DNA of 64,000 bases from a virus (IMGVR_UViG_3300028832_000127:1-64000); one strand, 5' to 3'. Positions 128 through 55,181 are shown, counted from the first letter of the stretch. Made by a program: numbers and translations. The notes: generated by a model not told the origin, from the letters alone.

Positions 128-141
128 AAAACGCAAAGAAA

Positions 142-11657: not shown

Positions 11658-11659
11658 TG

Positions 11660-12948: not shown

Positions 12949-13233
12949 TTAACCGTAAACAAACCGCCGCCGCAGGTCGGCTATCAGTTCTTTGTACGAT
13001 GTATTGTAGAGCCGTTTCATAGTCAGAAAATCCACGCCCTTGCAATATCGTAACAACGCCTCGATGTCTTGCACCATTTGGGCTGATGCTTTTTTGATGC
13101 CGCCCTTGCGCACCCATTGCTTGCAGAAGGCGTCCTTGTCGAGGTCTGATGCCATATATTGCCGCTCGATTTGGCGGTATATTTTGTCGGTGGGTACAAA
13201 CCCCGTCCGCGCTGTAAACTCTGATTTTAACAT
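12949..13233 (-). CDS. Hypothetical phage protein
   Basis: EFTARTG...IERQYMASDLDKDAFCKQW resembles a common gut-phage small protein. Confidence 0.7.
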   Translation of the reverse strand: MLKSEFTARTGFVPTDKIYRQIERQYMASDLDKDAFCKQWVRKGGIKKASAQMVQDIEALLRYCKGVDFLTMKRLYNTSYKELIADLRRRFVYG

Positions 13234-13285
13234 AATTTTTGCGGTTTTTATGGCGGTTTGATGCTATCGCCCCGCCTGTTAATAT

Positions 13286-13585
13286 TTAGTCTTCGTTTTG
13301 GCTGTTTATAAAGTCCGCCAATGCAGCCAAATCGCGGTGTTTCAGGAGTTCGTCGCGCAATTTCGGCACGGCGTTTTTAACGTCCGCGATTGTCATTTGG
13401 CGTTGGTCGGTGGTGTTTTTGATGTTGCCGTCGTTGTCAACGGTGACTTGCAGAAAACTGCCGCCAAATCGGTCTGTTTCAAAGGTGAAGAAACAAAATC
13501 CGTAGGGGGTGTCGCTTTTGTGCCAAAGGACTTGCGCATCGTGCGCAATACCTGTAAGGATAAGCAAAACTGCATATTGTTTCAT
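13286..13585 (-). CDS. Hypothetical protein
   Basis: 99 aa ORF in the leftward cassette. Confidence 0.7.
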   Translation of the reverse strand: MKQYAVLLILTGIAHDAQVLWHKSDTPYGFCFFTFETDRFGGSFLQVTVDNDGNIKNTTDQRQMTIADVKNAVPKLRDELLKHRDLAALADFINSQNED

Positions 13586-32311: not shown

Positions 32312-32770
32312 ATGAATAAGTTAGAACGAATAAAAAAGGCTGTAAAAATGGCTGTTGCGCTTGGTTATGGCAAAAATCAGGCAGAAATAGGGCGATTGTT
32401 AGGATATAACAACGGCGCGGCGTTTTCGCACGTCCTAAATGGCGTTGACAAAATGCCTACTAATTTTATAGATAAATTACAAAGTGTTTTACCTACACTA
32501 AATATAGAATGGATTGAGACTGGGCAGGGCGAGATTTTCAAAGACAAGGCGATACCGCAAAAAACACCCCCCGCCATCCATTCCGCTGGCGACGTGGCAA
32601 TGTTCAATTCGCAGATTAACCACGACAACCTTGCCGCCACGCTGCAACGCCTGACCGACGAGATAGCCGAGCAACGCCGGACATACACGGAACTATTAGC
32701 CGCAAAAGACGAACAAATCGCCAAAAAAGACACGCAGATTGACCAACTTTTAAAAATCATATCAAAATGA
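32312..32770 (+). CDS. CI-like XRE HTH repressor
   Basis: NQAEIGRLLGY...FSHVLNG...IEWIETGQGEIF plus C-terminal coiled coil. Confidence 0.8.
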   Translation: MNKLERIKKAVKMAVALGYGKNQAEIGRLLGYNNGAAFSHVLNGVDKMPTNFIDKLQSVLPTLNIEWIETGQGEIFKDKAIPQKTPPAIHSAGDVAMFNSQINHDNLAATLQRLTDEIAEQRRTYTELLAAKDEQIAKKDTQIDQLLKIISK

Positions 32771-33165
32771 CACTGAAAGACCGCATCAACAAGATAATAG
32801 ACCTCAAATCCAACGGAAACACCACGCACTTCGCAAAATTGACGGGGTGGTCGTGCGAGACCGTCCGCAACGTCAGACGCGCAGGAACAAACAACGTTAC
32901 TCTGATAACAGACTTGCTCCGCGCAGTGCCTGAAATTTCCGCGCGTTGGCTGCTGCTTGGAGAGGGCGAGATGCTCCGACCCTTCGGTCTTGCCTACGCC
33001 GAGGGCGAGTTCCTTAAAAGGCTTGCGCGCCTTGCCGACATAGCAACCCTTGTGCCGCGCATGGACGCCGCGCAGTTGCGTAAGTTTCAGGTAGCCGTAG
33101 CGCAGGGCAACTTCCCCGACTTCACGCCTGACGAAATCGCCGCCCTGAAAGATAACAAGCGATGA
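32767..33165 (+). CDS. Second XRE-like HTH regulator
   Basis: FAKLTGWS...PEISARWLLLGEGEML. Confidence 0.75.
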   Translation: MTLKDRINKIIDLKSNGNTTHFAKLTGWSCETVRNVRRAGTNNVTLITDLLRAVPEISARWLLLGEGEMLRPFGLAYAEGEFLKRLARLADIATLVPRMDAAQLRKFQVAVAQGNFPDFTPDEIAALKDNKR

Positions 33166-33337
33166 GGCGAGGGTGTGGGGATAGGAAACAAAAACGGCGG
33201 ACATTTCACAACGCCGCCGAAAAAATCGCTTCTTTAATGTAGCAAGAAACACATCTTAACACTTAATACTCTAAAAATCTATCCTTCCCTACTGAAAAAT
33301 GAAAATGAAAAACTTTAACGATGCAAAAATACACAAT

Positions 33338-33724
33338 TTATTTGAATTTGCAAACATATTCCACCTTGTCTATCTCCATAAGCCAAAACCTAATGAGGTT
33401 GTAGAATTGGGGGAAATTGCGGCAAATGACGTATTTGTAGCCTTGTTGCTCCACCGCTGCCTGCCATTCCTTTTGATGCTCCGACTGAACCCCGTCTTTT
33501 GTTTTCATTTCGATACACAGACCGTGGTAGCCTCGGCTCGGGTACAGGAACAACAAGTCGGACACGCCCGCCACAATGCCCTCTTTGGTCATTATAACCG
33601 CCGTTATGCGGTCTCTCTTGCCCCCATTCGGCACGGAAAAAAGGAGTGGTCGCAGGTCTTTGTATTGCAGCCTGAACCACTCCACACACTTCTGCTGGAT
33701 ATGGCTTTCTAAGTATCTTGGCAT
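33338..33724 (-). CDS. VRR-NUC domain nuclease
   Basis: ESHIQ...VPNGG...GVSDL...IEMK...QSEHQKEW PD-(D/E)xK pattern. Confidence 0.9.
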   Translation of the reverse strand: MPRYLESHIQQKCVEWFRLQYKDLRPLLFSVPNGGKRDRITAVIMTKEGIVAGVSDLLFLYPSRGYHGLCIEMKTKDGVQSEHQKEWQAAVEQQGYKYVICRNFPQFYNLIRFWLMEIDKVEYVCKFK

Positions 33725-33834
33725 AATTCCTTTCTTTACGGCTGCAAAGATATATATTAAATTTTGATTATGCAAAACATTTTCAAACTTTTTTTTGCAT
33801 ATTTTTCTTCGACTTAGACCGCCTCATCAGTCAG

Positions 33835-34899
33835 TCAGATTAACTGCGGTATCTTTCCGACCGCCTCGCGTTTTGACTTGTCCACAACCTTTGCATAAAT
33901 CATCGTCGTGGCGAGCGACTTATGCCCCAACAGCTTCTGTATCGTCGCAATGTTTACATCAAGTTCTAACATCATAACCGCGAATGTGTGCCTTGCGGTG
34001 TGGAACGTTACGTGCTTGCCCGTGATGCCCGCCGCCGCCGCCCAATCCGACAGATAGTCATTCGGGCGTGTCCGCATCTTGAAAACCTTGTCCGCGTCCC
34101 CCCTGCGCTCCCCCATGAGTTCCACAGCCTGCGGCGTGATGTCGAGCCATTCGCGCTTCTTTGTCTTGTGCTGCCTGAACATAATGCGCGTTATCCCGCC
34201 CTCGCCCATCTGCACGTTGCCCCACGTCAGGGCGTTGATGTCGATGCAGCGCAGCCCCGTCAGGCAGGAGAACAGGAATGCCCGCTTGACCACCTCGGCA
34301 CGGCACGGCGCGGCTGCAAGTCTGCGCACCTCGTCCATAGTCAGGTACTCGCGCTCGGTGTCCGTGAGCGCAAAGCACTTTACCGCCGCCACCGTTTCAA
34401 GCCTCATCTTGCCCTCTTTCACTGCCTTAAAAAGCGCGGTTCGGAGTTTGGCGAAATAGATTGCCTTCGTGTTCCGTGCAATGGGCAGTGCGCCGATGTA
34501 GTCCTTTATGTCCGACAGGGTGTCCGCGCCTATGTTCGCAAGCCTCTTGCCGCCGTACTTCTTCGCGATGGTGTTTATCAGTGTGCGCAATATCTCCGTC
34601 CTCTTGCCCTGCGTCTTCAATTCCTCTCTGTACGCCCTGAGATAGCCATCGAGCGTGGTCTTGTCGTCCGTGGACAAGTCATACCGCCGCCGCTCCACCT
34701 CAACGGTGCGCTGCGACCTGATTATTTCCGCGAGCCTCATCGTCTCCGCGTTCTTCTGCCTGTCCGCCCTTGTCCGCTCAGGGACGAGGTAGAGTTTGAG
34801 GAACTCATAGCACCGCTCGCCGTCTGCGTAGATGTCGAGATATAAGGAGCGCGAGCCGTCCTTCAACTTTTTTTCTCTAAGCCTAACCTTGTCTTTCAT
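33835..34899 (-). CDS. int: Tyrosine integrase (Bacteroidetes type)
   Basis: Arm-binding SLYLDIY; catalytic TGLR, QHKT, HTARH, LGH and IYA. Confidence 0.95.
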   Translation of the reverse strand: MKDKVRLREKKLKDGSRSLYLDIYADGERCYEFLKLYLVPERTRADRQKNAETMRLAEIIRSQRTVEVERRRYDLSTDDKTTLDGYLRAYREELKTQGKRTEILRTLINTIAKKYGGKRLANIGADTLSDIKDYIGALPIARNTKAIYFAKLRTALFKAVKEGKMRLETVAAVKCFALTDTEREYLTMDEVRRLAAAPCRAEVVKRAFLFSCLTGLRCIDINALTWGNVQMGEGGITRIMFRQHKTKKREWLDITPQAVELMGERRGDADKVFKMRTRPNDYLSDWAAAAGITGKHVTFHTARHTFAVMMLELDVNIATIQKLLGHKSLATTMIYAKVVDKSKREAVGKIPQLI

Positions 34900-35286
34900 T
34901 TTCTGTTTCAATTTCTGTTTTAAAAATTGTAGATTTTCGGGTAACAAAGGAATAACAAAAATTTTAGAAAAAAAAGGAAAATAGGGGAAAAATAAGGAAT
35001 AAAGCAAAATTAACTGCAAGAGCCTAAAAAGGCGTTTTATTCCCTTTGTATGTCGTTTTGTTCCCGATTGTCTGAACGAAACAAAATTTATAATAAAAAT
35101 TGTGCTTTTATTGCAACTATCTATACATCAACATATTACAACAATCAATTTTTTGTCAGTAACAAGGGGGAAACAAAACGGCTTGCGCTATCTAACATTA
35201 ATTACGACAAAAAAAAATATGAATTTTGTTTGCAAAATCAAAAGTTTTTTTGTATATTTGCGGAAACAATTTAACACAAAAGTTAT

Positions 35287-35670
35287 ATGGAGCAAGATAA
35301 ATTACAATCTGCAATAGCCTATTTCCACGGTCAGGCGGAAATATCACCATTCGCCGCCGAGGTGGAGGGGTATCTGCAAGAGTTGCACGACCTCAAATTC
35401 GGCGACAAAAAGCCGTTGAAAGTGTATAAGTTCGTTGGTGATGACGATATACGATGTGGCGACGGTCTTGCAATCGTCGCTGCGGAAAACGACAGCCAAG
35501 CGTGCAGACTGATGGATGATGCGGCAAAGGGCGACATCACCGACGCGGACGACAACGACATCCAACATCTTATCAGTACATTAGATACGATTAATCCTAT
35601 TGAAATTCCGTGCCTGTCAGCGTCGTTGTCAGAGCCGACAATCATTGCTATACGCGCATACGAGGAATAA
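35287..35670 (+). CDS. Acidic hypothetical protein
   Basis: 127 aa; promoter TTTG...TATATTTG upstream. Confidence 0.7.
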   Translation: MEQDKLQSAIAYFHGQAEISPFAAEVEGYLQELHDLKFGDKKPLKVYKFVGDDDIRCGDGLAIVAAENDSQACRLMDDAAKGDITDADDNDIQHLISTLDTINPIEIPCLSASLSEPTIIAIRAYEE

Positions 35671-35673
35671 AAA

Positions 35674-35877
35674 ATGAAGGTATATATTATGTCGGCGACA
35701 GAAAAATATTATGGCAATATGTTCATCGCCGCTGAAACCGAGGAACAGGCACGAGGTCTAACGAACAAAGGCAAGGGGGTATTCTCCGACGATAGGATAG
35801 TCGTAGAAGAACCTATGCTGTCGGCAAACGTGGACACGCCGCGAATTATAGCTGATTTGATGTTTGTCCGTCAATAA
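35674..35877 (+). CDS. Small protein resembling the C-terminal half of the preceding gene
   Basis: KVY...IAAE...QARGL...LSA...PRII parallels KVY...VAAE...QACRL...LSA...PTII in 35287-35670. Confidence 0.6.
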   Translation: MKVYIMSATEKYYGNMFIAAETEEQARGLTNKGKGVFSDDRIVVEEPMLSANVDTPRIIADLMFVRQ

Positions 35878-35987
35878 TAATCCTTGCAACTTTTTTGCTA
35901 CATTTGCGGAAACAGACAACAGCATCGGAAGAACCGTTGGTAAAACCTTTTGGTTAACTCCTTTTCAAATCGGGACACGTAGAGTGA

Positions 35988-36073
35988 GGGAACGTTATTC
36001 GAGTTCGAGTAAACGAGACCCGCATTCGCACCGTTATTCGTGTTACCCCCAAACAACAGACCGCGAAGGGACG
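35988..36073 (-). repeat. DGR template repeat (TR), 3'-truncated
   Basis: 86 bp, 79/86 identical to 36218-36303; 6 of 7 mismatches are at TR adenines in AAT/AAC/TAC codons. Confidence 0.92.
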
Positions 36074-36117
36074 GCGTCGCCGCCCGACCAACCCTGTTAA
36101 CTATATTTTACATTTTG

Positions 36118-36134
36118 CGCCCCTTCCGAGGGCG
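36118..36134 (-). promoter_or_regulatory. GC hairpin downstream of VR (candidate DGR homing hairpin)
   Basis: CGCCCTC-GGAA-GGGGCG, 35 nt after the target stop codon. Confidence 0.45.
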
Positions 36135-36169
36135 TGGACGGTCGCCGCCTTTGGGCTGGCTCCGACGCT

Positions 36170-36303
36170 TTACGCGACAAAGCAGAGACGCGAGCCGACA
36201 GCCGGATTCGTATACGTGGGAACGTGATGCGAATTCGAGGAAACGAGACCCGCAGTCGCACCGTTAAGCGTGTTACCCCCAAACAACAGACCGCGAAGGG
36301 ACG
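36170..36303 (-). repeat. DGR variable repeat (VR) at the 3' end of the target gene
   Basis: Encodes SLRGLLFGGNTLNGATAGLVSSNSHHVP...GSRLCFVA. Confidence 0.9.
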
Positions 36304-37435
36304 TACTATCTATATTAACGTAATGATAGTCGTGATAGTATGTGTCCGCGCTGCCACCGACTTTTTTTGCCGTGATGTCGCCGTACTGCCCAAAGTGGAT
36401 TTCCTTGACGTAACCGTTGCTTCTTGCTTCGTTGCCGACGGAGCGGTAGTTTGAATAAGAAGTTGAGGAAAACAGCGAGGGACGGCTGCAAGCATAGACC
36501 GCGCTTGTGCCGCTTGTCCCCGACACTACGTTGACAAGTACGCCGTCCGTCCACTTCCAAATGTGTCCAAACGGGTTTTCTATGCCACGGTAACGAGGCA
36601 CGGACACAGTTACAAGGGTGCTGTTGTTTGCGTCCTTGACGGCGAGGGATTTTACGCCTGTGCCGTTGCCGAGTTCGTCGGTGTAGCCGCAGGGGACGAT
36701 GGGATAACGACCGTTGTAATTATTCCACGATGTGTCGTTCCAATCTGTTACGCCCGCGCCGAGACCGCCTTGGTGGTAGCCGTTTGCGTCCAAATTAGCG
36801 TTAAATGCCGCCTGTGAATTGAACGTGCAATACTCGACCGCGAAGAGCCAAAACAGCCACTTGTGCGCGTCGTACACATTGCAGTTCCACCGCGTGTCGC
36901 CGTTATTTCGGTTGCGTGCGTAGGTGCGAAAGTTGGTAAGGCTGATGCTTGTTGCGGGCATACCGAGTTGGCTGCGGTACGTGCCGTCCCACGCGGATTG
37001 ATTGTTTCCGCCACGGTAGTCTGCGGTGGTGTTGACGATGCTGCAAAGTTTGTTTGTGGAGCGTTGGAGCGATGCTTCGTATGCGCCGACGTAGTAGCGC
37101 GGAATGTGGGTGAAGCCCGACCGAGGTGTCGCCGAGAGCCAAACGCGGTTGATTGTGTTCGATGCGCGTGTGCCGTCGAACTTTATCCAATGTTCTGGGA
37201 CGCGCACCATCACCTGTCCGAGCGAGCCGTCCCTTGTCGCCGAAGTCCAGTCGTCGTAGGGAAGCTCCATAACCTCGTTGCCGAGGTCGTCGAGGATAAC
37301 GCCTTTCATCTCCGACTGCACTGGTAGCAATCGGTGCGCGTCCTTGTCGCCGATGCGGTGCATCACGTCGTTCACCGTGTCGAAGTCGATGCCGTAGGGG
37401 GCGAGTTTTTCATATATTTTACGTCCTGTTATCAT
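36170..37435 (-). CDS. DGR target protein, C-type-lectin-fold (Mtd-like) putative receptor-binding protein
   Basis: C-terminal VR, YVGAYEA and YRGIENPFGHIWKW motifs; last gene of the tail-fibre operon. Confidence 0.85.
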   Translation of the reverse strand: MITGRKIYEKLAPYGIDFDTVNDVMHRIGDKDAHRLLPVQSEMKGVILDDLGNEVMELPYDDWTSATRDGSLGQVMVRVPEHWIKFDGTRASNTINRVWLSATPRSGFTHIPRYYVGAYEASLQRSTNKLCSIVNTTADYRGGNNQSAWDGTYRSQLGMPATSISLTNFRTYARNRNNGDTRWNCNVYDAHKWLFWLFAVEYCTFNSQAAFNANLDANGYHQGGLGAGVTDWNDTSWNNYNGRYPIVPCGYTDELGNGTGVKSLAVKDANNSTLVTVSVPRYRGIENPFGHIWKWTDGVLVNVVSGTSGTSAVYACSRPSLFSSTSYSNYRSVGNEARSNGYVKEIHFGQYGDITAKKVGGSADTYYHDYHYVNIDSTSLRGLLFGGNTLNGATAGLVSSNSHHVPTYTNPAVGSRLCFVA

Positions 37436-37446
37436 AGTGTAATGTT

Positions 37447-38151
37447 TTATTCGTTTGATACCGTGAAAGTTCCGCTACTTGCAACGTTGCCGTAGAACTT
37501 GCCGCTCACAGCATCGTACATTCCGCACTCGTCTGCCTGACGCGCTATGCCATTGCCGTCCAAAGATGCGGGTATTGCATGGAGTAGCCGGCAGGGGGTG
37601 AGGTTCATTATTGTAGCGTTGTTTTTAATAAAACGGAAGTAGGCACATTTGACATTATTAGAATCAGCATAAGCAACAAATTCAGAATAGAACAATCGAA
37701 ATTCTTTTGAACCTAACGCTCCCTTAGTTACCTGATGGGAATCCCCATTTATAACTATTGTATTCGATTGTGTGCTGATAGTCACATTAGTGGCTGCGAA
37801 AGGATTAATATTAATCTCAGATGAGTTGTTGGCAACTCGTAGCCCTTGATAATAGTCCACCGTCTTGCCAACCATTGTATTTCTTCCATCATCTGAACCA
37901 GAGCCAAAGCGTCTCCAAAACAGACACTTCCTATCAGACAAGTTATCTACTTGCGTTTCCCAATCTAAGTCTTCATTAAGATTATGCAGTGTGTCAATAT
38001 ACGCTGTCCCATCCCCCATCAGCCACGGGTACGACGCGAAGTCGTCTCCCTCGACGAGCCGCGTGAGTTCCTTGCCGATGCGCACCGTGCTGACATCAAC
38101 GCCGTTGCGGACGATGCGCTTAATCTTGTGTCCGTTGTAGTATATCGACAT
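37447..38151 (-). CDS. Tail-fibre-associated protein
   Basis: GDGTAYIDT...PC...GMYDAVSGKFYGN ends typical of gut-phage tail domains. Confidence 0.6.
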   Translation of the reverse strand: MSIYYNGHKIKRIVRNGVDVSTVRIGKELTRLVEGDDFASYPWLMGDGTAYIDTLHNLNEDLDWETQVDNLSDRKCLFWRRFGSGSDDGRNTMVGKTVDYYQGLRVANNSSEININPFAATNVTISTQSNTIVINGDSHQVTKGALGSKEFRLFYSEFVAYADSNNVKCAYFRFIKNNATIMNLTPCRLLHAIPASLDGNGIARQADECGMYDAVSGKFYGNVASSGTFTVSNE

Positions 38152-38154
38152 AGC

Positions 38155-41100
38155 CTAATAGATGTTATCGTATGTAAAATATACTTGATTCTGCACCACC
38201 GTTCCTGCTGTTTCAAGGTCGGCGTAGTCGTCCTCGGTGATAAGGTTCTGCCCCACCCACTGATTGCAAAGGGTGTTGATGTTAACGCCGACAAGCCGCT
38301 GATTTGTTGCGTCCCACACCATCACCTGTCCGTTGCTAAGGTTGCCGCTCTCATCCCTTGTCGCTATCGGTTCGAGCGTGCCACCTTCATCTCCAATACG
38401 GAATACACCCGATGCGTCTGTGCCGAACAGCAAGTCGTTGCTAAGACCGTCGTAATTCTCGACTTTCGTGCCGCTTAACGAGCCGCTTGCAATTGCCGTC
38501 TGCGCACCGTCGCGTAGCGTGATAAAGTTGTTTTCGGACTTGATGTTTACGATTTCCTCGACCGTCTCCTTGCCTGTAACGTTTAGATTACCGCTGACGG
38601 AGAGGTTGCCCGACACCGAGCCGTTGCCCGTTATCGCCGTGCCGCTTGACGAAACCTCGACCTTGTTGTTTCCGCTCTGTATCTTCGTGTCGGTGTTCTG
38701 CGTGTGCCTTTTCGACACCGCGTCGGCTGCATCTGTTGTCGCAATCGAAGTCGCCGCAACCTTGCCGCTGCTGTTGCTTTCGAGGATTTTCGACGCTGTG
38801 AGGTCTGCGGTCGTGATGCTTGTCGCAGCACCCGTGATTGTCGCTTGTTTGCCTTGTATTGCAGTCTCCGCCGCCGTCATTCGCGTTTCGAGGTCGGAAA
38901 CCGCGCCCTCACTCGACGGCTGCACGTTGATGCGCTGCCAGCCACCCGTGCGAATAACGATGTCGGCTGACGGTGTAATACGCTGCACTCCGCCATTCCA
39001 CAAGTTGCCAATAGGCTGTGACGCCTTGATTACGTGAGGGTATGAATAGTCGGAATAAAACTCGTTGGACACGACATTGTTGCTCATCAGACCCAAAGAA
39101 TAATATTCCACACCGTGTTCGTCGAGCCATACAGACGGATAGCCTTCACCACCCGTCGCCGCCGTGTTTATGATTTCCACGCCGTTGTCAAGTTGCACAG
39201 CGTCCACATCCCATACGTTTTCGGCATATTGATATTGATGATAAATTACATTGACAATCTTGTGCGCGTCGCCGTTTGCGTCTGCCGTGTACGTTCCTAT
39301 CAACTGCTTGCATCCGTCCTCGGTTTGATAACTTGCGGGGTACGTAATATAGTATTTTAGACCGCTGACCATTATTTCTCGCATATCTTGCCGCACCTTG
39401 AAGTCCTTTGTGATTGAAGTTGCGCGGTAAATGTAGCCGCCGTTTGGGTTTGGATAAACGAGAACCTGCTGACCTGCTGGGATAGTTGCGACTACTTCCC
39501 CTGCCGTGTATTGATACACATATCCGTCGGTGTAGTTCGCTGTGGTCGTTCCCCTGTGCTGCACGATTTCGCCATTTGTCGTGCCTTGGTAGGTCGTCAA
39601 GTCAACTTGTTTTAGCGCGTCGGGAACGTTGCCGACCGCTGCGTCAATCGCCGCCTTAATGCCGCCGCTCGTTACGGGGTTGGTGCTTGCCGCCGTCGGT
39701 GTGCTGTCAAAGGTGAGGGTGTCTTGTTTATTTGCTATCGCCGCCACGTTGTCCTCGTGTCCCTTCAACAACTTGCCGATTGCAACGTTCATACTGTCGC
39801 CAATTGCTGGTGCGGAATAGGTCGAAGCCTTGACAAACGCGCTTGTAAGGTTGACGTTTGAGCCGTCGTAGATGTCCACCAAGTCTTTAAGCGACACCCT
39901 GATAACAGACTTGCCGCTGGCTACATTGAACGTGAATTTGAGGTAGGGGACTTCCACCGTTACGCCTTGCTCCGCCGTTGTGTATAGTTGCACGTTGTCG
40001 AGCATACCGTCCACGATGAACTGCGACATATCCACATACGACACCACCGCGCCGCCCTTGCCTTTCAGTTCAAGATGCTGATTTGAGGAGTTGTAGGCGA
40101 TGTCGATGGACGAGCCTATTGCGTCGTTTGTGAGGGTCAGGAAGTTGTCGCCTGATGCCACGCCCGTCGGTGGCTGTGTCGGTGATTGCGTCCACGACTG
40201 CGAGCGGATAATGATGTCAGCCGTTGCCGTTATCATTTGTGTGGTCGCGCCCAAAGCCGTGCCGAGGGGTGCTGTGGCGAGTAGGTAATGCTGCGTTTCT
40301 GCCGCGTTTGTGGCGAAGTCTTTGGAGAGGAGCGTATATTGCGCCCCTGCATAGTATTTCGTGCCGTTTTTGGCGTAAAAGTCGTATATCGCTTGCGTTG
40401 TATGCTGTGTCCCCGAAATCGGCAGCACAACGCCGTTGTCGAGGGTAACGGAATTAATCGTAGTGTCCGTCGCGCTGACGCTTGCTATCTGATGCAAGTC
40501 GCCCTCGCTGTCGGGTACGTAACAGCCAACCAACTTCGATTGCTCCGCCGTCGGCAGCGTGGCGTTTGTGAATATCGTGTAGGTGATGCCCGACACTTCC
40601 GCCGTGTAGTAGGACAGCATCTTTGTTGTCGATGCGTCAACGGTCATGTCAGACACGTACTCCACGCCGTCTTGCATCAATGACACATACCGCGTTCCTT
40701 GCGTTATGGTCTTGACGGTCGCGCCAAGTGCGCATTTGTAGGTGTAGCCGTTGACGAGTTGCGCCGTTGTTGCGCCGTTGTGCATCACAATCTCGTCGTC
40801 CTCGCCCGTGTAGGCGTTGATGTCGCGCTGTTTGAGAGCGTCGGACGTTCCACCGCCACCCTCGTTGTTCTCCAATACTTCAATCCGCCTTTCGTGGTCG
40901 GTCAGGGTATCGGAGAGGTTGGCGATGTCGGAAATTTCGTGTGTGTGCTGTGCCGCCGCCTTGCCGTCGAGTGCTGTTTGCAAACCGTTAACGTCACTTA
41001 TATTATGTGTGTGGCTTGCCGCCGCCTTGCCGTCCAACGTGGTTTGCAAATTGTTGATTTCGGAGATGTTGTGGGTGTGTACTGCCGCAGCCTTGCCGTC

Positions 41101-41487
41101 CAATGCAGCCTTGACACCGCCCGACTTCACGGGATTTGAGGAATTGGCGGTCGGCTCGTTGTCGAATGTCAGCGTGGCTTGCTTGCCGTCGAGTGCGGTC
41201 TGCAACCCGTTAACGTCCGCGATGTTGTGGGTGTGCGCTGCATTTGCCTTGCCGCTCAATGCGGATTGTAATGCGCTGATTGCCGCCTCGTTGTTTCCGC
41301 AGCGTTCCTGCAATGCGCTGATTGCCGCCGAGTAGTCCTCGCCGCTGCCCGTAATCACAGACACCGCTATCTTGACGCTGTTTCCGTTGCTGTCTATGCC
41401 ATAGACGTAAGCACCCGTCACTGACGTTATCGCCGTACACTCCTGCACGAAGACATTAATTTTTTTATATTCTACCGCCGCCGCCAT
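38155..41487 (-). CDS. Long tail fibre protein
   Basis: Repeated GKAAAxHTHxIxDxxxLQTxLD units, duplicated ~220 aa module, trimer-like beta repeats. Confidence 0.85.
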   Translation of the reverse strand: MAAAVEYKKINVFVQECTAITSVTGAYVYGIDSNGNSVKIAVSVITGSGEDYSAAISALQERCGNNEAAISALQSALSGKANAAHTHNIADVNGLQTALDGKQATLTFDNEPTANSSNPVKSGGVKAALDGKAAAVHTHNISEINNLQTTLDGKAAASHTHNISDVNGLQTALDGKAAAQHTHEISDIANLSDTLTDHERRIEVLENNEGGGGTSDALKQRDINAYTGEDDEIVMHNGATTAQLVNGYTYKCALGATVKTITQGTRYVSLMQDGVEYVSDMTVDASTTKMLSYYTAEVSGITYTIFTNATLPTAEQSKLVGCYVPDSEGDLHQIASVSATDTTINSVTLDNGVVLPISGTQHTTQAIYDFYAKNGTKYYAGAQYTLLSKDFATNAAETQHYLLATAPLGTALGATTQMITATADIIIRSQSWTQSPTQPPTGVASGDNFLTLTNDAIGSSIDIAYNSSNQHLELKGKGGAVVSYVDMSQFIVDGMLDNVQLYTTAEQGVTVEVPYLKFTFNVASGKSVIRVSLKDLVDIYDGSNVNLTSAFVKASTYSAPAIGDSMNVAIGKLLKGHEDNVAAIANKQDTLTFDSTPTAASTNPVTSGGIKAAIDAAVGNVPDALKQVDLTTYQGTTNGEIVQHRGTTTANYTDGYVYQYTAGEVVATIPAGQQVLVYPNPNGGYIYRATSITKDFKVRQDMREIMVSGLKYYITYPASYQTEDGCKQLIGTYTADANGDAHKIVNVIYHQYQYAENVWDVDAVQLDNGVEIINTAATGGEGYPSVWLDEHGVEYYSLGLMSNNVVSNEFYSDYSYPHVIKASQPIGNLWNGGVQRITPSADIVIRTGGWQRINVQPSSEGAVSDLETRMTAAETAIQGKQATITGAATSITTADLTASKILESNSSGKVAATSIATTDAADAVSKRHTQNTDTKIQSGNNKVEVSSSGTAITGNGSVSGNLSVSGNLNVTGKETVEEIVNIKSENNFITLRDGAQTAIASGSLSGTKVENYDGLSNDLLFGTDASGVFRIGDEGGTLEPIATRDESGNLSNGQVMVWDATNQRLVGVNINTLCNQWVGQNLITEDDYADLETAGTVVQNQVYFTYDNIY

Positions 41488-41620
41488 TGTTATAGTTATA
41501 AAATTTTAACACATTTTTAATGTTTTGATGTTGCAAATATATAAAAAAATATCTATGTTTGCAACATCTTGTAGTGAAATATTTGTTGTTTTTAAGCCTA
41601 TATTAAGATGTTTGATTGTA

Positions 41621-41650
41621 ACCGCTCTGTCTCACGACGGGGCGGTTTTT
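41621..41650. terminator. Intrinsic terminator-like hairpin
   Basis: ACCGCTCTGTC-TCAC-GACGGGGCGGT followed by a T-run. Confidence 0.6.
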
Positions 41651-42556
41651 TTATTTTGTCAGTGGTGTGCCGCCGTCCGTTGTAAGCACGAACTCCGCCT
41701 CATCGTCCGACAGCACCGCCATAGAGTAGCGGTTCACCACCGTAAAGGTCAGGGTGAAGGCTATGCCCGCGTTTCCGCTGTTTAGTTTCAGGCAGACATC
41801 CTCGCAGGTCGCGGATTTGTAGTAACAATCAATCATTTCCGAGAGAGAGCCGACGAACAGACAGCGCAATTCGGGAGCCACGATGCGGTTAAGCAACGTG
41901 TAATAATTCCTTACGCAGACGGGCATAGATGCCGCACGAATAAGGCATTTTACGCTTATCTCGTTGCTTGCTATCTGAATAGTGCCGCCGCCGTCATACA
42001 CCGCACCATTCTCGCTGTTATCGTCGATTGTAAGGCGTTGTTTGACCTTTCCTTGCTGCCTTATCTTGTCGGTCGTGCCGTCCAAGACGTACACGCCGAA
42101 CTTGTCGAGACCCTCGTCGTCGAGCGTGATGCCGCCGCCGCCAAGATGCCACTGCGGAACAAGGAGCGAATTTGGAGAGTATGGCTCGTCGTCATAGAAC
42201 GATATGCTAAAAGACTGCCATTTTTCGCTTGTGTGTTTCAGGCTGTTACTATCGACACGCAGGACGATAAACACGCCCAAATCGGCAAAATTCCATTCAA
42301 AATTTGCCTTTGTTTCGAGATGCGCCATAAACCGCTCGTAGCCGTCCAAGCCGTTAGCGTGGAAGTTGAGCGTTACGGTGCGTTTTGACAGCGTGGGGTT
42401 GTGCAAGTCCGCCTCTATGTAGTCGTGCTCCGCCCAATCGTTTGTTTTAACCGATTTCAAGGCGGGAAACTGCAAGAGCGACTTGTAACTATCAGGGGCG
42501 AGAATTACCCCCAAGTCCTCCAACGGTGCGCCGTCTATGTATAATTGTGCGCTCAT
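41651..42556 (-). CDS. Putative distal tail / baseplate hub protein
   Basis: Two-domain pattern LYIDGxPLEDLGV...NDW.E...EADL seen in Bacteroides siphophage tail genes. Confidence 0.6.
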   Translation of the reverse strand: MSAQLYIDGAPLEDLGVILAPDSYKSLLQFPALKSVKTNDWAEHDYIEADLHNPTLSKRTVTLNFHANGLDGYERFMAHLETKANFEWNFADLGVFIVLRVDSNSLKHTSEKWQSFSISFYDDEPYSPNSLLVPQWHLGGGGITLDDEGLDKFGVYVLDGTTDKIRQQGKVKQRLTIDDNSENGAVYDGGGTIQIASNEISVKCLIRAASMPVCVRNYYTLLNRIVAPELRCLFVGSLSEMIDCYYKSATCEDVCLKLNSGNAGIAFTLTFTVVNRYSMAVLSDDEAEFVLTTDGGTPLTK

Positions 42557-43291
42557 TTCAGATACTTGTTAAAAAGTTCGTCAATTGTCACCTTTCCCCC
42601 TTTTTCGTACAGCAACAACTTCATTCTGTACGCCTGCGCCTTTGCCGCCACTTTCAGGTTGTGGCGTTTCTGCAAGTCCTTTGCCTGTTCCGCCGCGCTC
42701 ATCAGCCGCTTGTACTCGGCGCGGATGGCTTCAATCTGTGTGTCCTCACTCATTGTCTTTCAGTGATATTAATTGCCTTAATAAACCGTCTGTCATTTCG
42801 CCGTCTGAATAGAACAGCATTTTGAACATCTCGAAGTACACCGCAGCCGCGCCGAGGTGGTAGTTCCTTGCCGCGCCGTCCTCTGTCTGTTCAGACCTCG
42901 CGATGCACTCCGCGTATTCTCGTTTAATGTGGCGTTTTACCGCCGCCATTTTTGTTTTTTCTGATATTGTCATTGCTTGCCAAATAAACGTTTGTAAATT
43001 TCCGAGTATGCCTTTAACAGACAATCCCACTTGTCCGCCGACACGCTGTCGTGTATCGTCTGACTTGCAATCATCAGCCGCTCCGTTTCCTTTATCTGCA
43101 AACGCAAATAAAGTTCTACCTCTCGCATTTTGTCCGCCATTTCATGCCTCCTTTTTTGCCTTGTAATCATTGCAAGATTGTGAGCCGTATTTCCGCGTTT
43201 CCTGATACAAACAAGCATACTTAATTCGCCGACCATCACGGTACGGATAACGGTTCGCGCAACCCTTGCAAATGTCGTTCTTTTTGTTCAT
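42553..43291 (-). CDS. Four small hypothetical genes (42553-42753, 42746-42973, 42970-43140, 43142-43291)
   Basis: Coupled short helical ORFs inserted between two tail genes. Confidence 0.55.
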
Positions 43292-43380
43292 AGTCTTATA
43301 TTTTTTTATCAGTTTTTGGCGTGATGTCTCCAAAATCTCCGAGAAAGCACCAAACCGCCAACCGAAAATGTTATATTTTT

Positions 43381-46300
43381 TTATGATGTAGCATCTTTCA
43401 ATATGAAAATCTGCAAGTCGAAGTCACCGTTGTCGGGCGTTTCGACCGCAAAAGTCCAATTGGAAGACCGCTCGTCCGTGTATCGCGGTCTGTTCACGTC
43501 GTTATAGTGCCAATAGCGGCAGAACGCGGAATACCTCGGCTGACAGACAACAAAGCCGCTGAACAGAGAGAAGGCGTTGTACCAACCGCCGACACCGACC
43601 AAGACGCAGTCATTTTGCGGAGAGCCGACGGCAAGGGTCATGTTTCCGCTGCCGACAACCGCAGAATAGAACGTATCAAACGGCACGTTGCCCTTGTACG
43701 TCTTGTTGTTTTGCGTCATACTTGCGTTCCACCTTACGCGCCTGTTCGCGCTCCTGAGCCAAATGCGCCCCGACCATATCAATGTCGGCACAAGACCCGC
43801 GACGGGTTGCAGGCTAACATATTTCAATTTCTTTACCCCCTCCATGTTTCCGCTAAAATGCGAGAACGAGGGCTGAATGTAGGACGACACGCGGTCGGCT
43901 GCGTCTATGTCGGTGGCAACCTCTATTTTTTGCCTTGCGAACAGCCGACGGCTGTCTATGTCGTAAGCGCGGAAAGAGGTCGTTGAGCGCATCGCCCACG
44001 TCGAGAGGGTCGTATCCATGAAGAACCTGCCCTCAACACCACGGAATAAAAACGAGCCGTCCGCAAAGAACACTATTTTCGCGTCAGTGAGGATTTTTTC
44101 AATGTGGCTGAACACCTCGCCCGTGTTCGGGTCAACATAGTCTATCACGGTCGAAATCGTCAACTTTGCGCGGTTTCCAATCCAAAACCTGACAAGCCGA
44201 CGGTAGAAACCCTCGACTTGCTCGCCGAACAGCACGTTGCCGCCCGTAAATCCGCCGTAGTTGCGGTCGTTTTCCTTGCCGATAACGAGGTCGGACGTCA
44301 GCGCACCGTCTTTTATGTTGATGTTGCCTTGTATGACGTTGTTTACAAGGTCAATAAACGTGTTTGTATCATTGCTTACAATCTGCGACAGCCGAATTTG
44401 GCTGCCTGAAATTTCCACAGACCCAAAGACGTTTGAGTAAGACCGCGAGCCGTTCACCTCAGAGTTCAGGATACCACAAAGGAAATAGTAATATTCAGGC
44501 GTGGACTGCGGCAGGTAGGTGTCCTCCTTGATTTCGACAAGTTCAAAGGATGCGTATATGGTCGAAGGCTTGTACTTTCCTATGTATTGCGAAACGGCGC
44601 GTGTGTCCGCCTTGATGTATAGGTAGTAAGGCGACTGCGGATGCTCGGGGTGCAGCCTTGATGCGCCGTACAATCCCCAATAGGGGAACTCTCCGTCCGT
44701 GAATTGCTTTACCTCGCCGTCATTGCCGCCGCCGTCGGGGTTGGTGTAGTAGCGGTGGCGCAGCACAAAGTCCGTTGCATCCGCACCCTCGCCGTACCTG
44801 AAAGGCAGCACTATGTCGCCGTGCGCCTCATCCCATTGCGGGTTCCACGATTTTACTTCATAGCCGCCGTCGGGGACTTCTCCATCCTCGCCAAGCGTAC
44901 CCGTGATGATACCAAACTGATATTGCAGCGACTTGTCGCCGACAAGCAACTGCATCGTTTGGACGGTCACGGGGGATATTCCGCTTGTCCAATAGTTGTT
45001 AATAGTCTCCCCCCACTCCTGCAACGCCTTCTGCGTTTCCTCTTGGTCTCGGAAACTGCGCCTTTGGGCAAAGTTCATTGCCTCGGCGACCTTTGTGTCG
45101 GTGTAGGTCTGATTTTGCGCGATTTTCTTTAATTCGCTACTGATGCCCTGCGACACGGTGGAGTTCGAGAGCGTCAGTTCGGGCGCGTGGGGGTTCGTAA
45201 GGTAGGTTTTTATGGAGAGTATGCGGAGCAACCGCCCTGCGGAACAGAAGGCGTCGTCCTTGAAGTTGATATAGCCGCCGAGGACAAAATAACGCTCGAT
45301 TTCGTCCCACTTGTTGACGCTCCAAATGGGGTCAACCGTGCCGGAGAACTCGACCTCAACCTCGGAATGTTTGTAAAGGTAGTGGCAAGCCTCCAAAAGA
45401 AGTTCACGCTCCGCCTCCTCGATATACTCATTTGGCAGCATTACGTGAAAAACGGCAAACTCATCGCCGACCTTGGGAACATAACCCGTGCCGCTCTTGC
45501 CGTCCTTGTCGGTCACGATGTTGGGCGGCTCTTGTTGGTCATAGTAAGGCAGGTCGGGCATCGTGATGCCGTCAATCTCGGTGGGTTGTATCAGGAACTT
45601 GTGCGTTGCGGGGTCGTAACATTTGCCGTCGCCCATGTCCGCAAGGTTGAACTCCTTGCCCGCCAACATTCCCGTATTGAATACGATTGTCACCTGTTCG
45701 CCGCCTATAAGATAGTCGTTATAGTTCACCTCGTTGGCATCGGCGAAGATGTCCCAAAAACGGTTTGACATTTCCGCCACCTGTTCGGTGGTCATTGTGG
45801 AGCGGTCGCCCGTGTAGCCGTGCAGATAGACGGACGAGATTGTCAGCACCTTGTGGGGGTAGATGTCGGTGAGGTCGGTGCTGTCCTCATAGCCGTTGTT
45901 TATGTAGTCCTGCGGTCTGCGGTGGATGCCGAAGCCGTCCGCGTCCGTGGTAACAACCATTGAAGTCGCCATTATGCCCTCGCGGACAGAGGGAATGAAA
46001 GCGTCAACCTCAGCCTGAGAATACACCGTGCCTTTTTCGGTCGGCTCGGTCGGTTGCACATAGTAGAACGTGCCACTCCTCGGAAGTCGGAGTTTGTTTG
46101 CGTGGAGCGTCTGCGGTTGTCCTTCTATTACCTTGTCGTAGGTGTAGGTCTGCGCGTTTATGTTGCGGTCGCCGCCCTCGACCCACAGCACGTCAACCGC
46201 TTTTTCTCCGCTGTTTTGGCGCGATACGCCCGTCAAAAAGCCTTTGCCCTTGCCGTACTGCAAAGTGTTTCTGTCTGACTTTATTTTGTTATATTCCGCC

Positions 46301-46836
46301 TTGCGTAGATTGATAGTATAGCCGTCGGTAATCTCCCATTCGGTCTCAAAGAGTTGCGCAATCTGATTTAGCGCGTCCATTAGCGTGTTATGGCTGAAAG
46401 ACGCGGTTTTTTCCGCAGATTGGACGCACTCGCCCACCGTCCACGTATTGCCGCCGTCGCGGTAGTTCATATTGTCCACGATGTGTTGGACGTACTCAAA
46501 GGGCTGCGCAGTCAAGGTGAAGTTCAGCCGACCGTCAACCATATTGCGGAACTTGTATGAGTTTAGGCGTTTTTGCGGTGCTTCAAAGGTCAGGGTGTAG
46601 TCGTACTGCCGCTCGTTTACTTTTGTGACTGCGCCGAGTTCAAGCAGTGTATATTCGCGGCTGTTAAAGGAGATGTGACAGCCAATGGGAAAGTCGTAAA
46701 ACTCCGCCATCGAGAATTGTAGGACAATATTGTCGTCGCCCATAATCTCCTGATAGGAATATGAGCCGTCCGATATTGCGGGCGTTTTTAACACCGTCCG
46801 CTCCTGTCCTCGTCCTGTGTAGATTTCTATCTCCAT
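43381..46836 (-). CDS. Large tail tip / baseplate protein
   Basis: EIMGDDNIVLQF...YDYTL.FE...TRL..YG..RNI pattern of Bacteroides phage tail proteins; 1151 aa. Confidence 0.8.
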   Translation of the reverse strand: MEIEIYTGRGQERTVLKTPAISDGSYSYQEIMGDDNIVLQFSMAEFYDFPIGCHISFNSREYTLLELGAVTKVNERQYDYTLTFEAPQKRLNSYKFRNMVDGRLNFTLTAQPFEYVQHIVDNMNYRDGGNTWTVGECVQSAEKTASFSHNTLMDALNQIAQLFETEWEITDGYTINLRKAEYNKIKSDRNTLQYGKGKGFLTGVSRQNSGEKAVDVLWVEGGDRNINAQTYTYDKVIEGQPQTLHANKLRLPRSGTFYYVQPTEPTEKGTVYSQAEVDAFIPSVREGIMATSMVVTTDADGFGIHRRPQDYINNGYEDSTDLTDIYPHKVLTISSVYLHGYTGDRSTMTTEQVAEMSNRFWDIFADANEVNYNDYLIGGEQVTIVFNTGMLAGKEFNLADMGDGKCYDPATHKFLIQPTEIDGITMPDLPYYDQQEPPNIVTDKDGKSGTGYVPKVGDEFAVFHVMLPNEYIEEAERELLLEACHYLYKHSEVEVEFSGTVDPIWSVNKWDEIERYFVLGGYINFKDDAFCSAGRLLRILSIKTYLTNPHAPELTLSNSTVSQGISSELKKIAQNQTYTDTKVAEAMNFAQRRSFRDQEETQKALQEWGETINNYWTSGISPVTVQTMQLLVGDKSLQYQFGIITGTLGEDGEVPDGGYEVKSWNPQWDEAHGDIVLPFRYGEGADATDFVLRHRYYTNPDGGGNDGEVKQFTDGEFPYWGLYGASRLHPEHPQSPYYLYIKADTRAVSQYIGKYKPSTIYASFELVEIKEDTYLPQSTPEYYYFLCGILNSEVNGSRSYSNVFGSVEISGSQIRLSQIVSNDTNTFIDLVNNVIQGNINIKDGALTSDLVIGKENDRNYGGFTGGNVLFGEQVEGFYRRLVRFWIGNRAKLTISTVIDYVDPNTGEVFSHIEKILTDAKIVFFADGSFLFRGVEGRFFMDTTLSTWAMRSTTSFRAYDIDSRRLFARQKIEVATDIDAADRVSSYIQPSFSHFSGNMEGVKKLKYVSLQPVAGLVPTLIWSGRIWLRSANRRVRWNASMTQNNKTYKGNVPFDTFYSAVVGSGNMTLAVGSPQNDCVLVGVGGWYNAFSLFSGFVVCQPRYSAFCRYWHYNDVNRPRYTDERSSNWTFAVETPDNGDFDLQIFILKDATS

Positions 46837-51676: not shown

Positions 51677-52144
51677 TTACAGGTATTTGTAGTGCTGTTT
51701 TCCGCAGTTGCACTTGGGGCATACCGCCTCGGCGACCAAGGGGTACATTCCCTCGCCTATCTCGCCCTGAATGTATGCAGATTTCTCGCCGTCCGTGGCA
51801 TACCCGAACCGCTCGCAGATGTGCGCCGTCAGGTGGTTGATTTCGTGGGTTACAGTGTTGAACAATTCGGCGTAATTGGTTGCGTGTGATATGGCGATGA
51901 GGGAAAAGCATTTGCCGCTGTCCGTGAATATGTAGCCCGTGTTTGGCTTGCATAAGGTTTCCACGGCGTTCCGCGCCCTCTCACGCCCCGCACCTGCCGA
52001 TAATATCGCACCCCACACCTTGTCCAAGTCCTTGTCCGTGTTGATGCCGCAATAGACCATCACCCACCACGGCTGCGGTATTTCCTTTTTTACGTAAAAG
52101 CCCTGTTCTATCATTTTTTTATCTCCTTTTTTACCATACTCCAA
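51677..52144 (-). CDS. HExxH zincin-like protein, last gene of the CCC operon
   Basis: TVTHEINHL...EKSAYIQG. Confidence 0.65.
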   Translation of the reverse strand: MEYGKKGDKKMIEQGFYVKKEIPQPWWVMVYCGINTDKDLDKVWGAILSAGAGRERARNAVETLCKPNTGYIFTDSGKCFSLIAISHATNYAELFNTVTHEINHLTAHICERFGYATDGEKSAYIQGEIGEGMYPLVAEAVCPKCNCGKQHYKYL

Positions 52145-52356
52145 AACTCTGTTTTTCAGGTCTTTGCGCCGTTCTTATCTTTTTATTTGATTTTCTGCCA
52201 CAAAAAGGAAAATAAAAACCGCCAAAAATCTGATTTGCAGCGTTTTGTTTAACTTGCCTACAACTTGCCGAAACGTCCAATATTGCGTCCAATTCCGCCG
52301 CCTTTTTGGACGTATTCTTGGTCATTTCAAACGGTTACAAAATGTCACCGTTTGAA

Positions 52357-52755
52357 TTAGATGTAGTTTTCCCAAAATATTGGGACACGCATCGCGCACA
52401 TTTTCGCCGTGAAGCACTCCAACACCGCCGACGGTGTGCAGTCGGGGTCGCAGATTGTCTCCTCGACAAACGCCGCCCTCGCCTCATCGGTCTTTAATGA
52501 CTTGGGGTAGTCGGCAAGCGACATATTGTAGAGATACCACGCCGTGTATTCCGCGCCGTCGGGCAGTCTGACATTGTTTTCTTTCAGGATTTCGCGCACG
52601 TCCGCCCATTCCACAGACTGCAACTTCTTCAACTTGCCCGTGGTGGGGTCTGCGGTCTGCATGTTGCCAATCGCCCACTCCGCCAACCGTTTCGAGAAGA
52701 ACCCGTGGTTGTTGTCCTCATAGGCTGCGCGCCCCTCGCTTATGTATTCCTTCAT
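52357..52755 (-). CDS. Conserved hypothetical protein (CCC operon)
   Basis: Start moved to MKEYISEG; NHGFFSKRLAEWA...YNMSLADY...ICDPD. Confidence 0.7.
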   Translation of the reverse strand: MKEYISEGRAAYEDNNHGFFSKRLAEWAIGNMQTADPTTGKLKKLQSVEWADVREILKENNVRLPDGAEYTAWYLYNMSLADYPKSLKTDEARAAFVEETICDPDCTPSAVLECFTAKMCAMRVPIFWENYI

Positions 52756-52850
52756 TTGATTGCCATATTTAAAAAAAGGCGGTCGGCACACGTACCAACC
52801 GCCCCAAACATTTAACAATAATTATAATTGAAAAACAAAAAAGGACTTAA

Positions 52851-53084
52851 TTACAAGTATCGTCCCGAGCCGCGACCGCTGCGGAACTCATCGTCTTTCT
52901 CCGCCTCGCAGTCCTCGAAACCGTGCTTGTAGCCCTCGCGGTAGCCGTCCTCGTAGGACATCATTCCGCTGTTGTTGCGGTAGTAGCCGCCACCGCTGCG
53001 CCTGCGCCTCATCTCTTCGCGCATTTGGGAACGCATCTGCGACTGACCGCCCTGACCGTCCCTGTCAACAAAAATGTAGCTCAT
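52851..53084 (-). CDS. Low-complexity Gly/Arg/Tyr-rich small protein (CCC operon)
   Basis: MRRRRSGGGYY...YEDGYREGYKHGFED. Confidence 0.7.
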   Translation of the reverse strand: MSYIFVDRDGQGGQSQMRSQMREEMRRRRSGGGYYRNNSGMMSYEDGYREGYKHGFEDCEAEKDDEFRSGRGSGRYL

Positions 53085-53090
53085 AGTTCC

Positions 53091-53636
53091 TTATGGTTTT
53101 TTGGGGTTCTCACCCGTCAGTTTTTTGAGCATCGCAAGCATCTGCGCGTTGTCGGTTTCAAGTTTTGCGAACCTCTTGGACATATCAGAATAGCCTTTTT
53201 CAAGGTCGGAAATGGTCTGCGCCTGTTTCTTCTCCTCCGCGTATTTGGGGTTCAAGACTTCAAGCATCTTGTCGCCCTCGGCTATCATCGTCTTGTGGTA
53301 TTCCACATCGCCCAACGCCTTTTTGGACTGAGAGATGAGGCTGTCAATCACCGAAATCATAGCGTCCCGACTGCCCGAAAACACCTTGTCGCCTGACTGA
53401 GCGACCTCGACGTTGAAAGGAATGTCCGTAAATGTCTCGTCCCTGCCGTCTATTGTCGCCGTGACGTTTATTACTTGCTGTATGTTCGTGCCGTTGAAAG
53501 CCGTGGGGACGGATTGCGCCTGATACTTCGGCTGCGGCTGCGTCTTTGACTTCACCGTGCCGATTTGCAGGGCGGGTGTCCCCGACTTCCTAAGCACATA
53601 GAACGGAGAACCGTTCACTAACGAGTTGAAATCCAT
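53091..53636 (-). CDS. Beta-domain plus coiled-coil protein (CCC operon)
   Basis: 181 aa; beta-rich N-terminal half and heptad-rich C-terminal half. Confidence 0.75.
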   Translation of the reverse strand: MDFNSLVNGSPFYVLRKSGTPALQIGTVKSKTQPQPKYQAQSVPTAFNGTNIQQVINVTATIDGRDETFTDIPFNVEVAQSGDKVFSGSRDAMISVIDSLISQSKKALGDVEYHKTMIAEGDKMLEVLNPKYAEEKKQAQTISDLEKGYSDMSKRFAKLETDNAQMLAMLKKLTGENPKKP

Positions 53637-53661
53637 TGTTATTTACTTTGTTTAGTTGAGT

Positions 53662-54024
53662 TTAAGCACCGCCGCTTGCCGCCGCAGGTGCCGTCTGTAT
53701 CAGTTGCAGTATTCCGTTGTACTTGTCGTTGAAAACGAGCAAAACGCCCGTGCCTGACAAGTCCGCGACCGTTACAGCCGCGCCGCCAAAATACGTGAGC
53801 GGTCTCGTCGTGCCGTTGAGCGTCAGGCTGACGGGCAGCGTCCCCGTCGTTCCCGTAGGGATTGCGCTTGTCACCCTGACCACGAACAAACCGACGGGCG
53901 ACAAGGGTCTGAAACCAAGGGCGAGGTTAACCGCCGTGTCAGACACAAGCACGTTTGTCGTCGGGATGTACGGAACGCCCTCCGTGTTTGCCGTTATGAT
54001 GTTGTTACACGCCATATTTCTCAC
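53662..54024 (-). CDS. Small beta-rich protein (CCC operon)
   Basis: Alternating hydrophobic pattern, Thr/Gly/Val rich. Confidence 0.75.
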   Translation of the reverse strand: MRNMACNNIITANTEGVPYIPTTNVLVSDTAVNLALGFRPLSPVGLFVVRVTSAIPTGTTGTLPVSLTLNGTTRPLTYFGGAAVTVADLSGTGVLLVFNDKYNGILQLIQTAPAAASGGA

Positions 54025-54033
54025 GTTTTTAGG

Positions 54034-54990: not shown

Positions 54991-55181
54991 TTGATTTTAG
55001 GTTTAAGTTGGTTTTATTAGGTTGATAATGTTGCTTGCAAGCGGTGGCAAAAGAACAGCATAAAAGAGGGGCGCAAAAGTCGGAGCGCGAGGGGCGGCGT
55101 TTAAGTTTAAGGCAAACACAAAGTTACAGCGAAAAAAAATTTATTGTTGGTTTTTCTTTTGTTTTTGGCGATGTTTTAAGG

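Follow-up and report, generated by a model that had tools for sequence, protein, structure and literature searches.

The canonical DGR, that of Bordetella phage BPP-1, comprises mtd with the VR, avd, the TR and brt (PMC3240598, PMC5703328). The Hankyphage of Bacteroides, a temperate phage of the human gut, is reported to carry a DGR that diversifies a tail protein (Benler et al. 2018, PMC6199706). Among 91 genomes of crAss-like genus I (AlphacrAssvirinae), 16% carry a full DGR cassette and 73% an incomplete one, with a VR in 80 genomes and a TR in 30 (PMC7290462); crAssphage LMMB has a complete cassette (Morozova et al. 2020, PMC7290462). Decay of DGR cassettes is already documented for phages of gut Bacteroidota, and commonly in crAss-like phages (PMC7290462).

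The DNA analysed here, a stretch of 64,000 nt (the window), forms the first 64 kb of a linear 76,469-nt IMG/VR record and belongs to an integrase-bearing temperate phage of the gut Bacteroidales type. It carries a tail-protein gene with a VR and, next to it, a TR that is cut short at its 3′ end, and the record holds no reverse transcriptase (RT). The locus is probably the remnant of an avd-less DGR that was killed by a deletion/replacement, which left the target intact, its VR fixed in one variant, and a dead TR stub of 86 nt.

The element resembles the DGR of crAss-like phages, an avd-less target(VR-IMH)-TR(IMH*)-RT cassette on a tail fibre or collar protein of a gut Bacteroidota phage. Unlike the crAss-like podoviruses, the phage is temperate, with an integrase and an SPP1-type portal, and its large terminase (TerL) is nearest to that of Bacteroides phage BS-TP2; unlike the incomplete crAss-like cassettes, its target is whole, its RT is wholly gone rather than truncated, and the break lies inside the TR. 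With BPP-1 it shares a tail receptor-binding gene with adenine-specific TR-to-VR differences at its 3′ end, a temperate phage as carrier and a GC-rich, IMH-like VR end, and it differs in having no avd, which is missing even from its intact relatives, and in the loss of the RT and the TR 3′ end. The Hankyphage element, likened to it here by description, in DGR type and host setting, is complete, whereas that of the window is not.

The TR/VR pair and its adenine signature

The DGR target gene (36170–37435, minus strand) is an intact ORF of 421 aa that closes the tail module and whose C-terminal end contains the VR. A repeat search returned an 86-nt direct repeat, 35988–36073 and 36218–36303, with 92% identity (79/86). 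The coding strand is the minus strand, on which the VR reads from 36303 to 36218 and the TR from 36073 to 35988. The TR remnant has 16 adenines on this strand, all of them kept, and the seven changes from TR to VR are A>C, A>T, A>C, A>C, C>T, A>C and A>C; TR adenines account for six of the seven (hypergeometric P = 1.06e-4). The in-frame sequence is GNTNNGANAGLVYSNSNNVP in the TR and GNTLNGATAGLVSSNSHHVP in the VR, the changes sitting in AAY/TAC codons in the manner of a DGR. The target VR has thus been subject to adenine mutagenesis in the past. These counts reproduce those of the initial annotation, all of whose numbers are correct.

The lone mismatch away from adenine is a synonymous third position, AAC in the TR and AAT in the VR. 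Here the VR has the same base as the TR of the closest relative, L083 (ENA ERZ27279881 k141_1595902; target 81% identical at the amino acid level), which is consistent with no homing having taken place after the mutation arose in the TR stub (or in the VR). A chance repeat, or an ordinary duplication of the target 3′ end in which no DGR took part, would be compatible with a single TR/VR pair that has seven mismatches on a record devoid of an RT. Such an origin is contradicted by the adenine bias (P = 1e-4) and is refuted by the comparative data, in which the repeat is orthologous to, and in register with, TR/VR pairs in dozens of relatives that carry an RT and whose TR AAY codons occupy the same places; we consider it practically negligible.

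The target ORF continues beyond the shared 86 nt for 48 nt (45 nt and TAA). These were initially described as having no counterpart in the TR, which holds; the part missing from the TR, judged by L083, is however 41 nt and not 48. This 41-nt segment of the VR (36177–36217, minus strand) contains three further variable codons and the GC-rich IMH-like end GTCGGCTCGCGTCTCTGCTTTGT, and it aligns to the L083 VR, where it is covered by L083's own TR. From L083, VR/TR homology over 127 nt would be expected (window 36303 to 36177). The TR of the window (35988–36073, minus strand) retains the first 86 of about 127 nt and turns to unrelated DNA right after ...GTTCCC, and so stops 41 nt short of the L083 end without covering the whole VR. 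In L083 the missing part reads ACGAATACGAACTCGAATGTCGGCTCGCGTCAATACTTTGT and comprises three AAY codons and the IMH*-like end; the lost sequence includes GTCGGCTCGCGTCAATACTTTGT. A full-length TR of this kind would be expected to continue past the stub as ...ACGAAT ACG AAY YCG AAT GTCGGCTCGCGTCAATACTTTG. The stub itself differs from the intact L083 TR at 4 of 86 positions, and the bases peculiar to it lie in GGTAACACG... and CGAACTCG (equivalent to GGTAACACGAAT... and CGAACTCGAAT).

Between the target stop and the TR lies a conserved spacer (36074–36169, minus strand) with GC-rich, hairpin-like segments, nearly identical in the window, L083 and a further relative, L084. The predicted fold of the region spanning the VR flank and the TR contains local hairpins, yet its stability equals that of shuffled sequence (z = 0.11).

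Intact cassettes in relatives and the breakpoint

The IMG/VR comparison set comprises 80 loci with targets 45–54% identical to that of the window, 72 of them with enough downstream DNA. An RT lies 300–700 nt behind the target in 70 of these 72; the other two, L018 and L077, have neither RT nor TR nearby. The TRs of the IMG/VR relatives, 114–116 nt long, extend without exception to a conserved 3′ end, ATCGGYTCTCRCCTWTGCTT, the partner of the VR end ...TCGGYTCTCGSCTTTGCTT.

Two closer relatives, reached through the protein database and then through their contigs, are syntenic with the window and intact. L083 has the same upstream tail genes and the same 91-nt spacer after the stop, followed by a 127-nt TR, a 103-nt TR–RT spacer and a 435-aa RVT_1 protein. 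In L087 (ENA ERZ27280353 k141_1036429; target 65% identical at the amino acid level) the order is tail module, target, TR, RT, genes of 108 and 115 aa, two small reverse-strand genes, integrase, VRR_NUC and Erf, and the RT, of 349 aa, contains IGNYTSQ and YADD. Both share with the window the tail module, the target, the spacer ahead of the TR and the IMH-like end, and L087 shares the integrase module too. They differ from it in keeping a 127-nt TR, a TR–RT spacer (hairpin CGCCNCTTGGCG) and an RVT_1 gene of 349–435 aa, where the window has 317 nt of unrelated DNA.

Alignment to these close relatives places the breakpoint at 35987/35988, as had been anticipated for a position near 35988. Homology of the TR stub to L083, L087 and L084 ends exactly at 35988, and colinearity with L083 and L087 (tblastx/blastn) stops at 35988–35989. 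Compared with L087, colinearity runs at about 70% nucleotide identity through the tail module, stops at 35988, resumes weakly at 35666, within a small gene (o127), and is strong from 35266 leftwards, where L087 13839–16463 matches window 35266–32723 with 92.7% nucleotide identity (blastn) and the integrase is almost identical. Relative to L087 the window is without 11479–13308, about 1.8 kb. What it lacks is exactly the TR 3′ end, the spacer, the RT and two small genes, which bears out a deletion as the cause of the truncation, one of the explanations first put forward.

With respect to L087 the phage is mosaic: identity is 92.7% at the nucleotide level in the lysogeny module (32723–35266) and only 67–83% in the tail module (36170–46617), and the DGR break lies at the border between the two modules.

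The replacing DNA (35671–35987, plus strand) is 317 nt long and consists of a small ORF, o67 (35674–35877), a promoter-like motif (35888–35914) and 73 nt of unique sequence. No homologue of the 317 nt was found in L083–L089, the 80 IMG/VR loci or the rest of the record, and an exact 36-mer comparison with IMG/VR was empty; likewise, no source of the 73-nt filler beside the break was found in the relatives, the record or IMG/VR. The neighbouring gene o127 (35287–35670, plus strand) is convergent with the target and homologous to an 88-aa reverse-strand gene of L087 (13315–13569; tblastn, 49% identity over 85 aa, E 3e-19). Neither o127 nor o67 matches a Pfam or PHROG family. BLASTP relates o67, as a weak paralogue, to the C-terminal half of o127 (32% over 62 aa, E 7e-5).

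A Bacteroidota-type promoter-like motif (…TTTTTTG.TA.ATTTGCGGAAACA) occurs in two plus-strand copies, at 35242–35268 and 35888–35914. The former precedes o127; the latter is followed by no ORF and is directed, antisense, into the TR stub and the target's 3′ end. The 21-nt core of the motif is present also in L087, L086 and L083.

A chimeric assembly joined inside the TR, with the TR 3′ end and the RT lying there in the true genome, would mimic such a break. The record is metagenomic, DGR repeats and population variation of the VR often break short-read assemblies, and the contigs of 8 of the 80 IMG/VR relatives end at or just past the VR. Against this, no k-mer at the joint 35987/35988 is repeated elsewhere in the record, promoter cassettes of one repeated family lie to its left and right, and the DNA on the left is the module found behind the DGR in syntenic L087. 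Moreover, a 55,336-nt contig of ENA assembly ERZ27256849, made by another pipeline but possibly from the same sample, and compared here by protein and gene order, encodes the identical 421-aa protein. The genes there run in the order 1110 aa, 234 aa, target, 62 and 127 aa on the other strand, integrase, VRR_NUC, Erf and methylase, with the same distance of 293 nt from the target to the next gene as in the window and no RT between. The identical protein and the same RT-less order argue against misassembly, and an artefact appears highly improbable.

Search for a reverse transcriptase and extent of the record

The initial annotation reported no RT in the window, and the searches extend this to the whole 76,469-nt record. 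An RVT_1 HMM gave no hit at E ≤ 0.01 in the record and was positive in control genomes in the same search. In tblastn searches of the record, the RT of L009 had no match at E ≤ 1e-5 and those of L083 and L087 none at E ≤ 1, and the RTs of nine relatives had none up to E = 100 within 33000–36400. The L083 TR 3′ end and TR–RT spacer have no copy on the record except the VR's own IMH-like end, in agreement with the original observation that the TR lacks its IMH* end, and the TR–RT spacer conserved in L083 and L087, with its hairpin TCGCCNCTTGGCGA, is absent from the window. The suggestion that the TR/RT half had been moved within this genome finds no support, as the 76.5-kb record contains no RT, no RT fragment and no 3′ half of a TR. 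Of the parts of a functional DGR the window therefore retains an adenine-biased TR/VR pair and is without the RT, a full TR with IMH* and the TR–RT spacer. As in the decayed cassettes of crAss-like phages, a VR target is present, the TR is partial and the RT is absent, with complete relatives (PMC7290462).

Two candidate locations of an RT were rejected. The 394-aa ORF downstream is a tyrosine integrase by Pfam (33835–35019, minus strand; Phage_integrase 1.2e-22, Arm-DNA-bind_5, Phage_int_SAM_5; called 354 aa in relatives) and stands at the start of the lysogeny module. An RT relocated together with a six-gene operon, which follows the RT in L083 and lies at 51.7–55.0 kb of the window, was found neither there nor elsewhere on the record. 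This operon (window 51677–54990, minus strand; L083:10903–14547) comes after RT-sequestin in L083 and directly after the target in L084, L086 and L089. It is 15–19 kb from the target in the window, so the order of modules differs among these phages.

Wider searches yielded little. An exact TR-core pattern had no matches in IMG/VR and JGI metagenomes, sets that may leave out the window's own record and its nearest ones. In a blastn comparison of the region with named phages, the sole match was a 65-nt TR-like stretch in LoVEphage-type genomes. The neighbouring proteins (234 aa and o127) retrieved no relatives as queries in IMG/VR.

CheckV estimates the 76,469-nt record to be linear and 66% complete. 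Its genes include terL, an SPP1-type portal, a major capsid protein, a tape measure, tail genes, an integrase, Erf, a replication initiator and methyltransferases. Both ends of the record (window 1–130; record 76270–76469, equal to L090 13271–13470) lie inside a repeated, back-to-back promoter cassette of about 530 nt, a five-copy repeat with other copies near 3.7, 14.2–14.6, 55.3 and 66.1–66.6 kb. The ends match the right and left halves of one cassette copy, about 136 nt apart in full copies. With terL, portal, capsid, tape measure, tail, integrase and replication genes present and both ends in one cassette, the record looks nearly complete; the contig probably closes on itself with little missing, the assembly having broken within a repeat of a closed genome. 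A segment flanked by promoter cassettes could nevertheless have dropped out of the assembly, so that absence of an RT from the phage as a whole is very likely rather than certain.

The large terminase (5535–7658, minus strand; 707 aa) shows homology to other TerL proteins from about residue 167 onwards, and its residues 21–178 are hit by a PHROG of unknown function, a sign of a possible N-terminal extension or fusion.

The tail protein

PHROG comparison assigns the target to phrog_5302, 'tail protein' (E 7.5e-98); it has more than 6000 homologues and is 35–47% identical to annotated tail proteins of crAss-like phages. Neither the target nor the neighbouring small ORFs matched a Pfam family, and a profile of the target found no match among PDB sequences. 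An AlphaFold2 model built from 32 sequences has a mean pLDDT of 59.8, falling below 35 across the VR, where it is unusable. A Foldseek search of the PDB with this model, of low confidence over the VR, gave nothing at E ≤ 0.001 and the DGR protein TaqVP at E 0.76 only. A C-type lectin (or Ig) fold, the ligand-binding type expected of DGR targets, did not emerge from the model, the Foldseek comparison or the profile search.

The protein retains the invariant C-terminal residues of its family (G387, G392, G396, P406 and G414-S-R-L-C418), and both the C-terminal placement of the VR and the conserved ...GSRLCF terminus are present. The intact ORF together with these residues points to a phage that still makes its tail protein in one fixed variant; the gene would then still be expressed, with a single VR sequence.

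Sister lineages and possible supply in trans

Among lineages with a target identity of at least 65%, four of seven have no RT near the target, versus 2 of the 72 more distant relatives. L084 (3524–3913) and L085 (3545–3935), with targets 78% identical at the amino acid level, carry a full-length mosaic TR and no RT, and the six-gene operon comes next. The first 46 nt of this TR match their own VR and its end is IMH*-like; the middle, of about 60 nt, differs from the VR at many positions other than adenines. The TR may have been swapped by recombination with another cassette. In L086 (3726–4800) the break lies 43 nt past the stop and in L089 (7260–7620) about 70 nt past it; neither has a TR or RT in the DNA read, and for L086 no RVT_1 was found in the first 22.6 of 35.4 kb. 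Within the final 134 nt the target genes of these two phages differ at 13 positions, compared with 3 across the remaining 1126 nt, a concentration which implies that the VRs were rewritten after the genes diverged. Either the TR/RT losses of the sister lineages are very recent and independent, or DGR-positive phages pass on the target as a module, or rewriting of the VRs takes place in trans.

These observations bear on whether the VR of the window is itself diversified in trans by a related, complete TR and RT, located in an unassembled segment, a co-resident prophage or the host chromosome, which would make the local stub irrelevant. From its IMH-like end through the downstream flank the VR is identical to RT-bearing L083 except for one stop-codon base (TAA versus TGA), and it could accept a compatible foreign cDNA; the L083 TR departs from the stub at the four positions mentioned above and no others. 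The rewritten VRs of L086 and L089, the completeness rating of the record and the example of L077 fit the same reading. The L077 record (G001), a 94%-complete provirus, has its target at about 36.2–37.5 kb with no TR nearby, and its sole RVT_1 gene (432–458 aa, 54320–55000) is 17 kb off. However, 3.7 kb around that remote RT contain no VR-matching sequence, and the VR differences between L086 and L089 equally fit recent module exchange from DGR-positive phages, since their upstream neighbours differ. In the window phage itself, neither an RT nor a full TR occurs in 76.5 kb that hold all main phage modules, and the TR-core scans of IMG/VR and JGI metagenomes were empty. Diversification in trans is accordingly considered unlikely.

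A broader form of the idea, that the target is a mobile, DGR-ready module in this clade whose VR, with intact IMH and flank, survives loss of the TR and RT and is rewritten by the TR/RT of co-resident relatives, we regard as a long shot. If it were true, RT-less phages would 'borrow' hypermutation, and the repeated independent losses (in the window, L084/L085, L086 and L089) would be tolerated or even favoured.

Probable loss of the cassette and its consequences

The favoured reading remains a DGR that was cut down in place. An ancestral avd-less element with the layout target-VR, TR, RT would have written the present VR by adenine mutagenesis, to which the six changes at adenine sites in the retained part testify. 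Later, a single illegitimate deletion/replacement would have removed about 1.8 kb, namely 41 nt of the TR, the RNA element of the spacer, the RT and two small genes. Its left end would lie at a mosaic joint by the integrase module, where an L083-like tail module meets an L087-like lysogeny module. The presumed leftover is an intact, expressed tail-protein gene with a fixed VR beside a dead 86-nt TR stub.

In DGRs, the starting point of cDNA synthesis is the TR 3′ end or a site beyond it, and for homing the TR must be homologous to the VR at its IMH end. In BPP-1, priming of the cDNA reportedly occurs at the spacer directly 3′ of the TR, and the IMH end of the VR is said to be needed for homing; to our knowledge, a priming role of the TR–RT spacer is established in BPP-1 only. 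Because the stub has lost its 3′ end and the homology to the IMH end, we infer that it is unable to act as a template for homing, even if a foreign RT were supplied. Most probably, the receptor-binding tip is frozen and the VR static.

The case leaves existing knowledge of DGRs unchanged. It would provide a base-exact example of the death of a phage DGR, through one deletion that ends inside the TR beside a mosaic joint and spares the receptor-binding gene, and such losses recur in this lineage of gut Bacteroidales phages. For annotation, VR/TR pairs that lack an RT should be read as frozen tail variants and not as active hypermutation.
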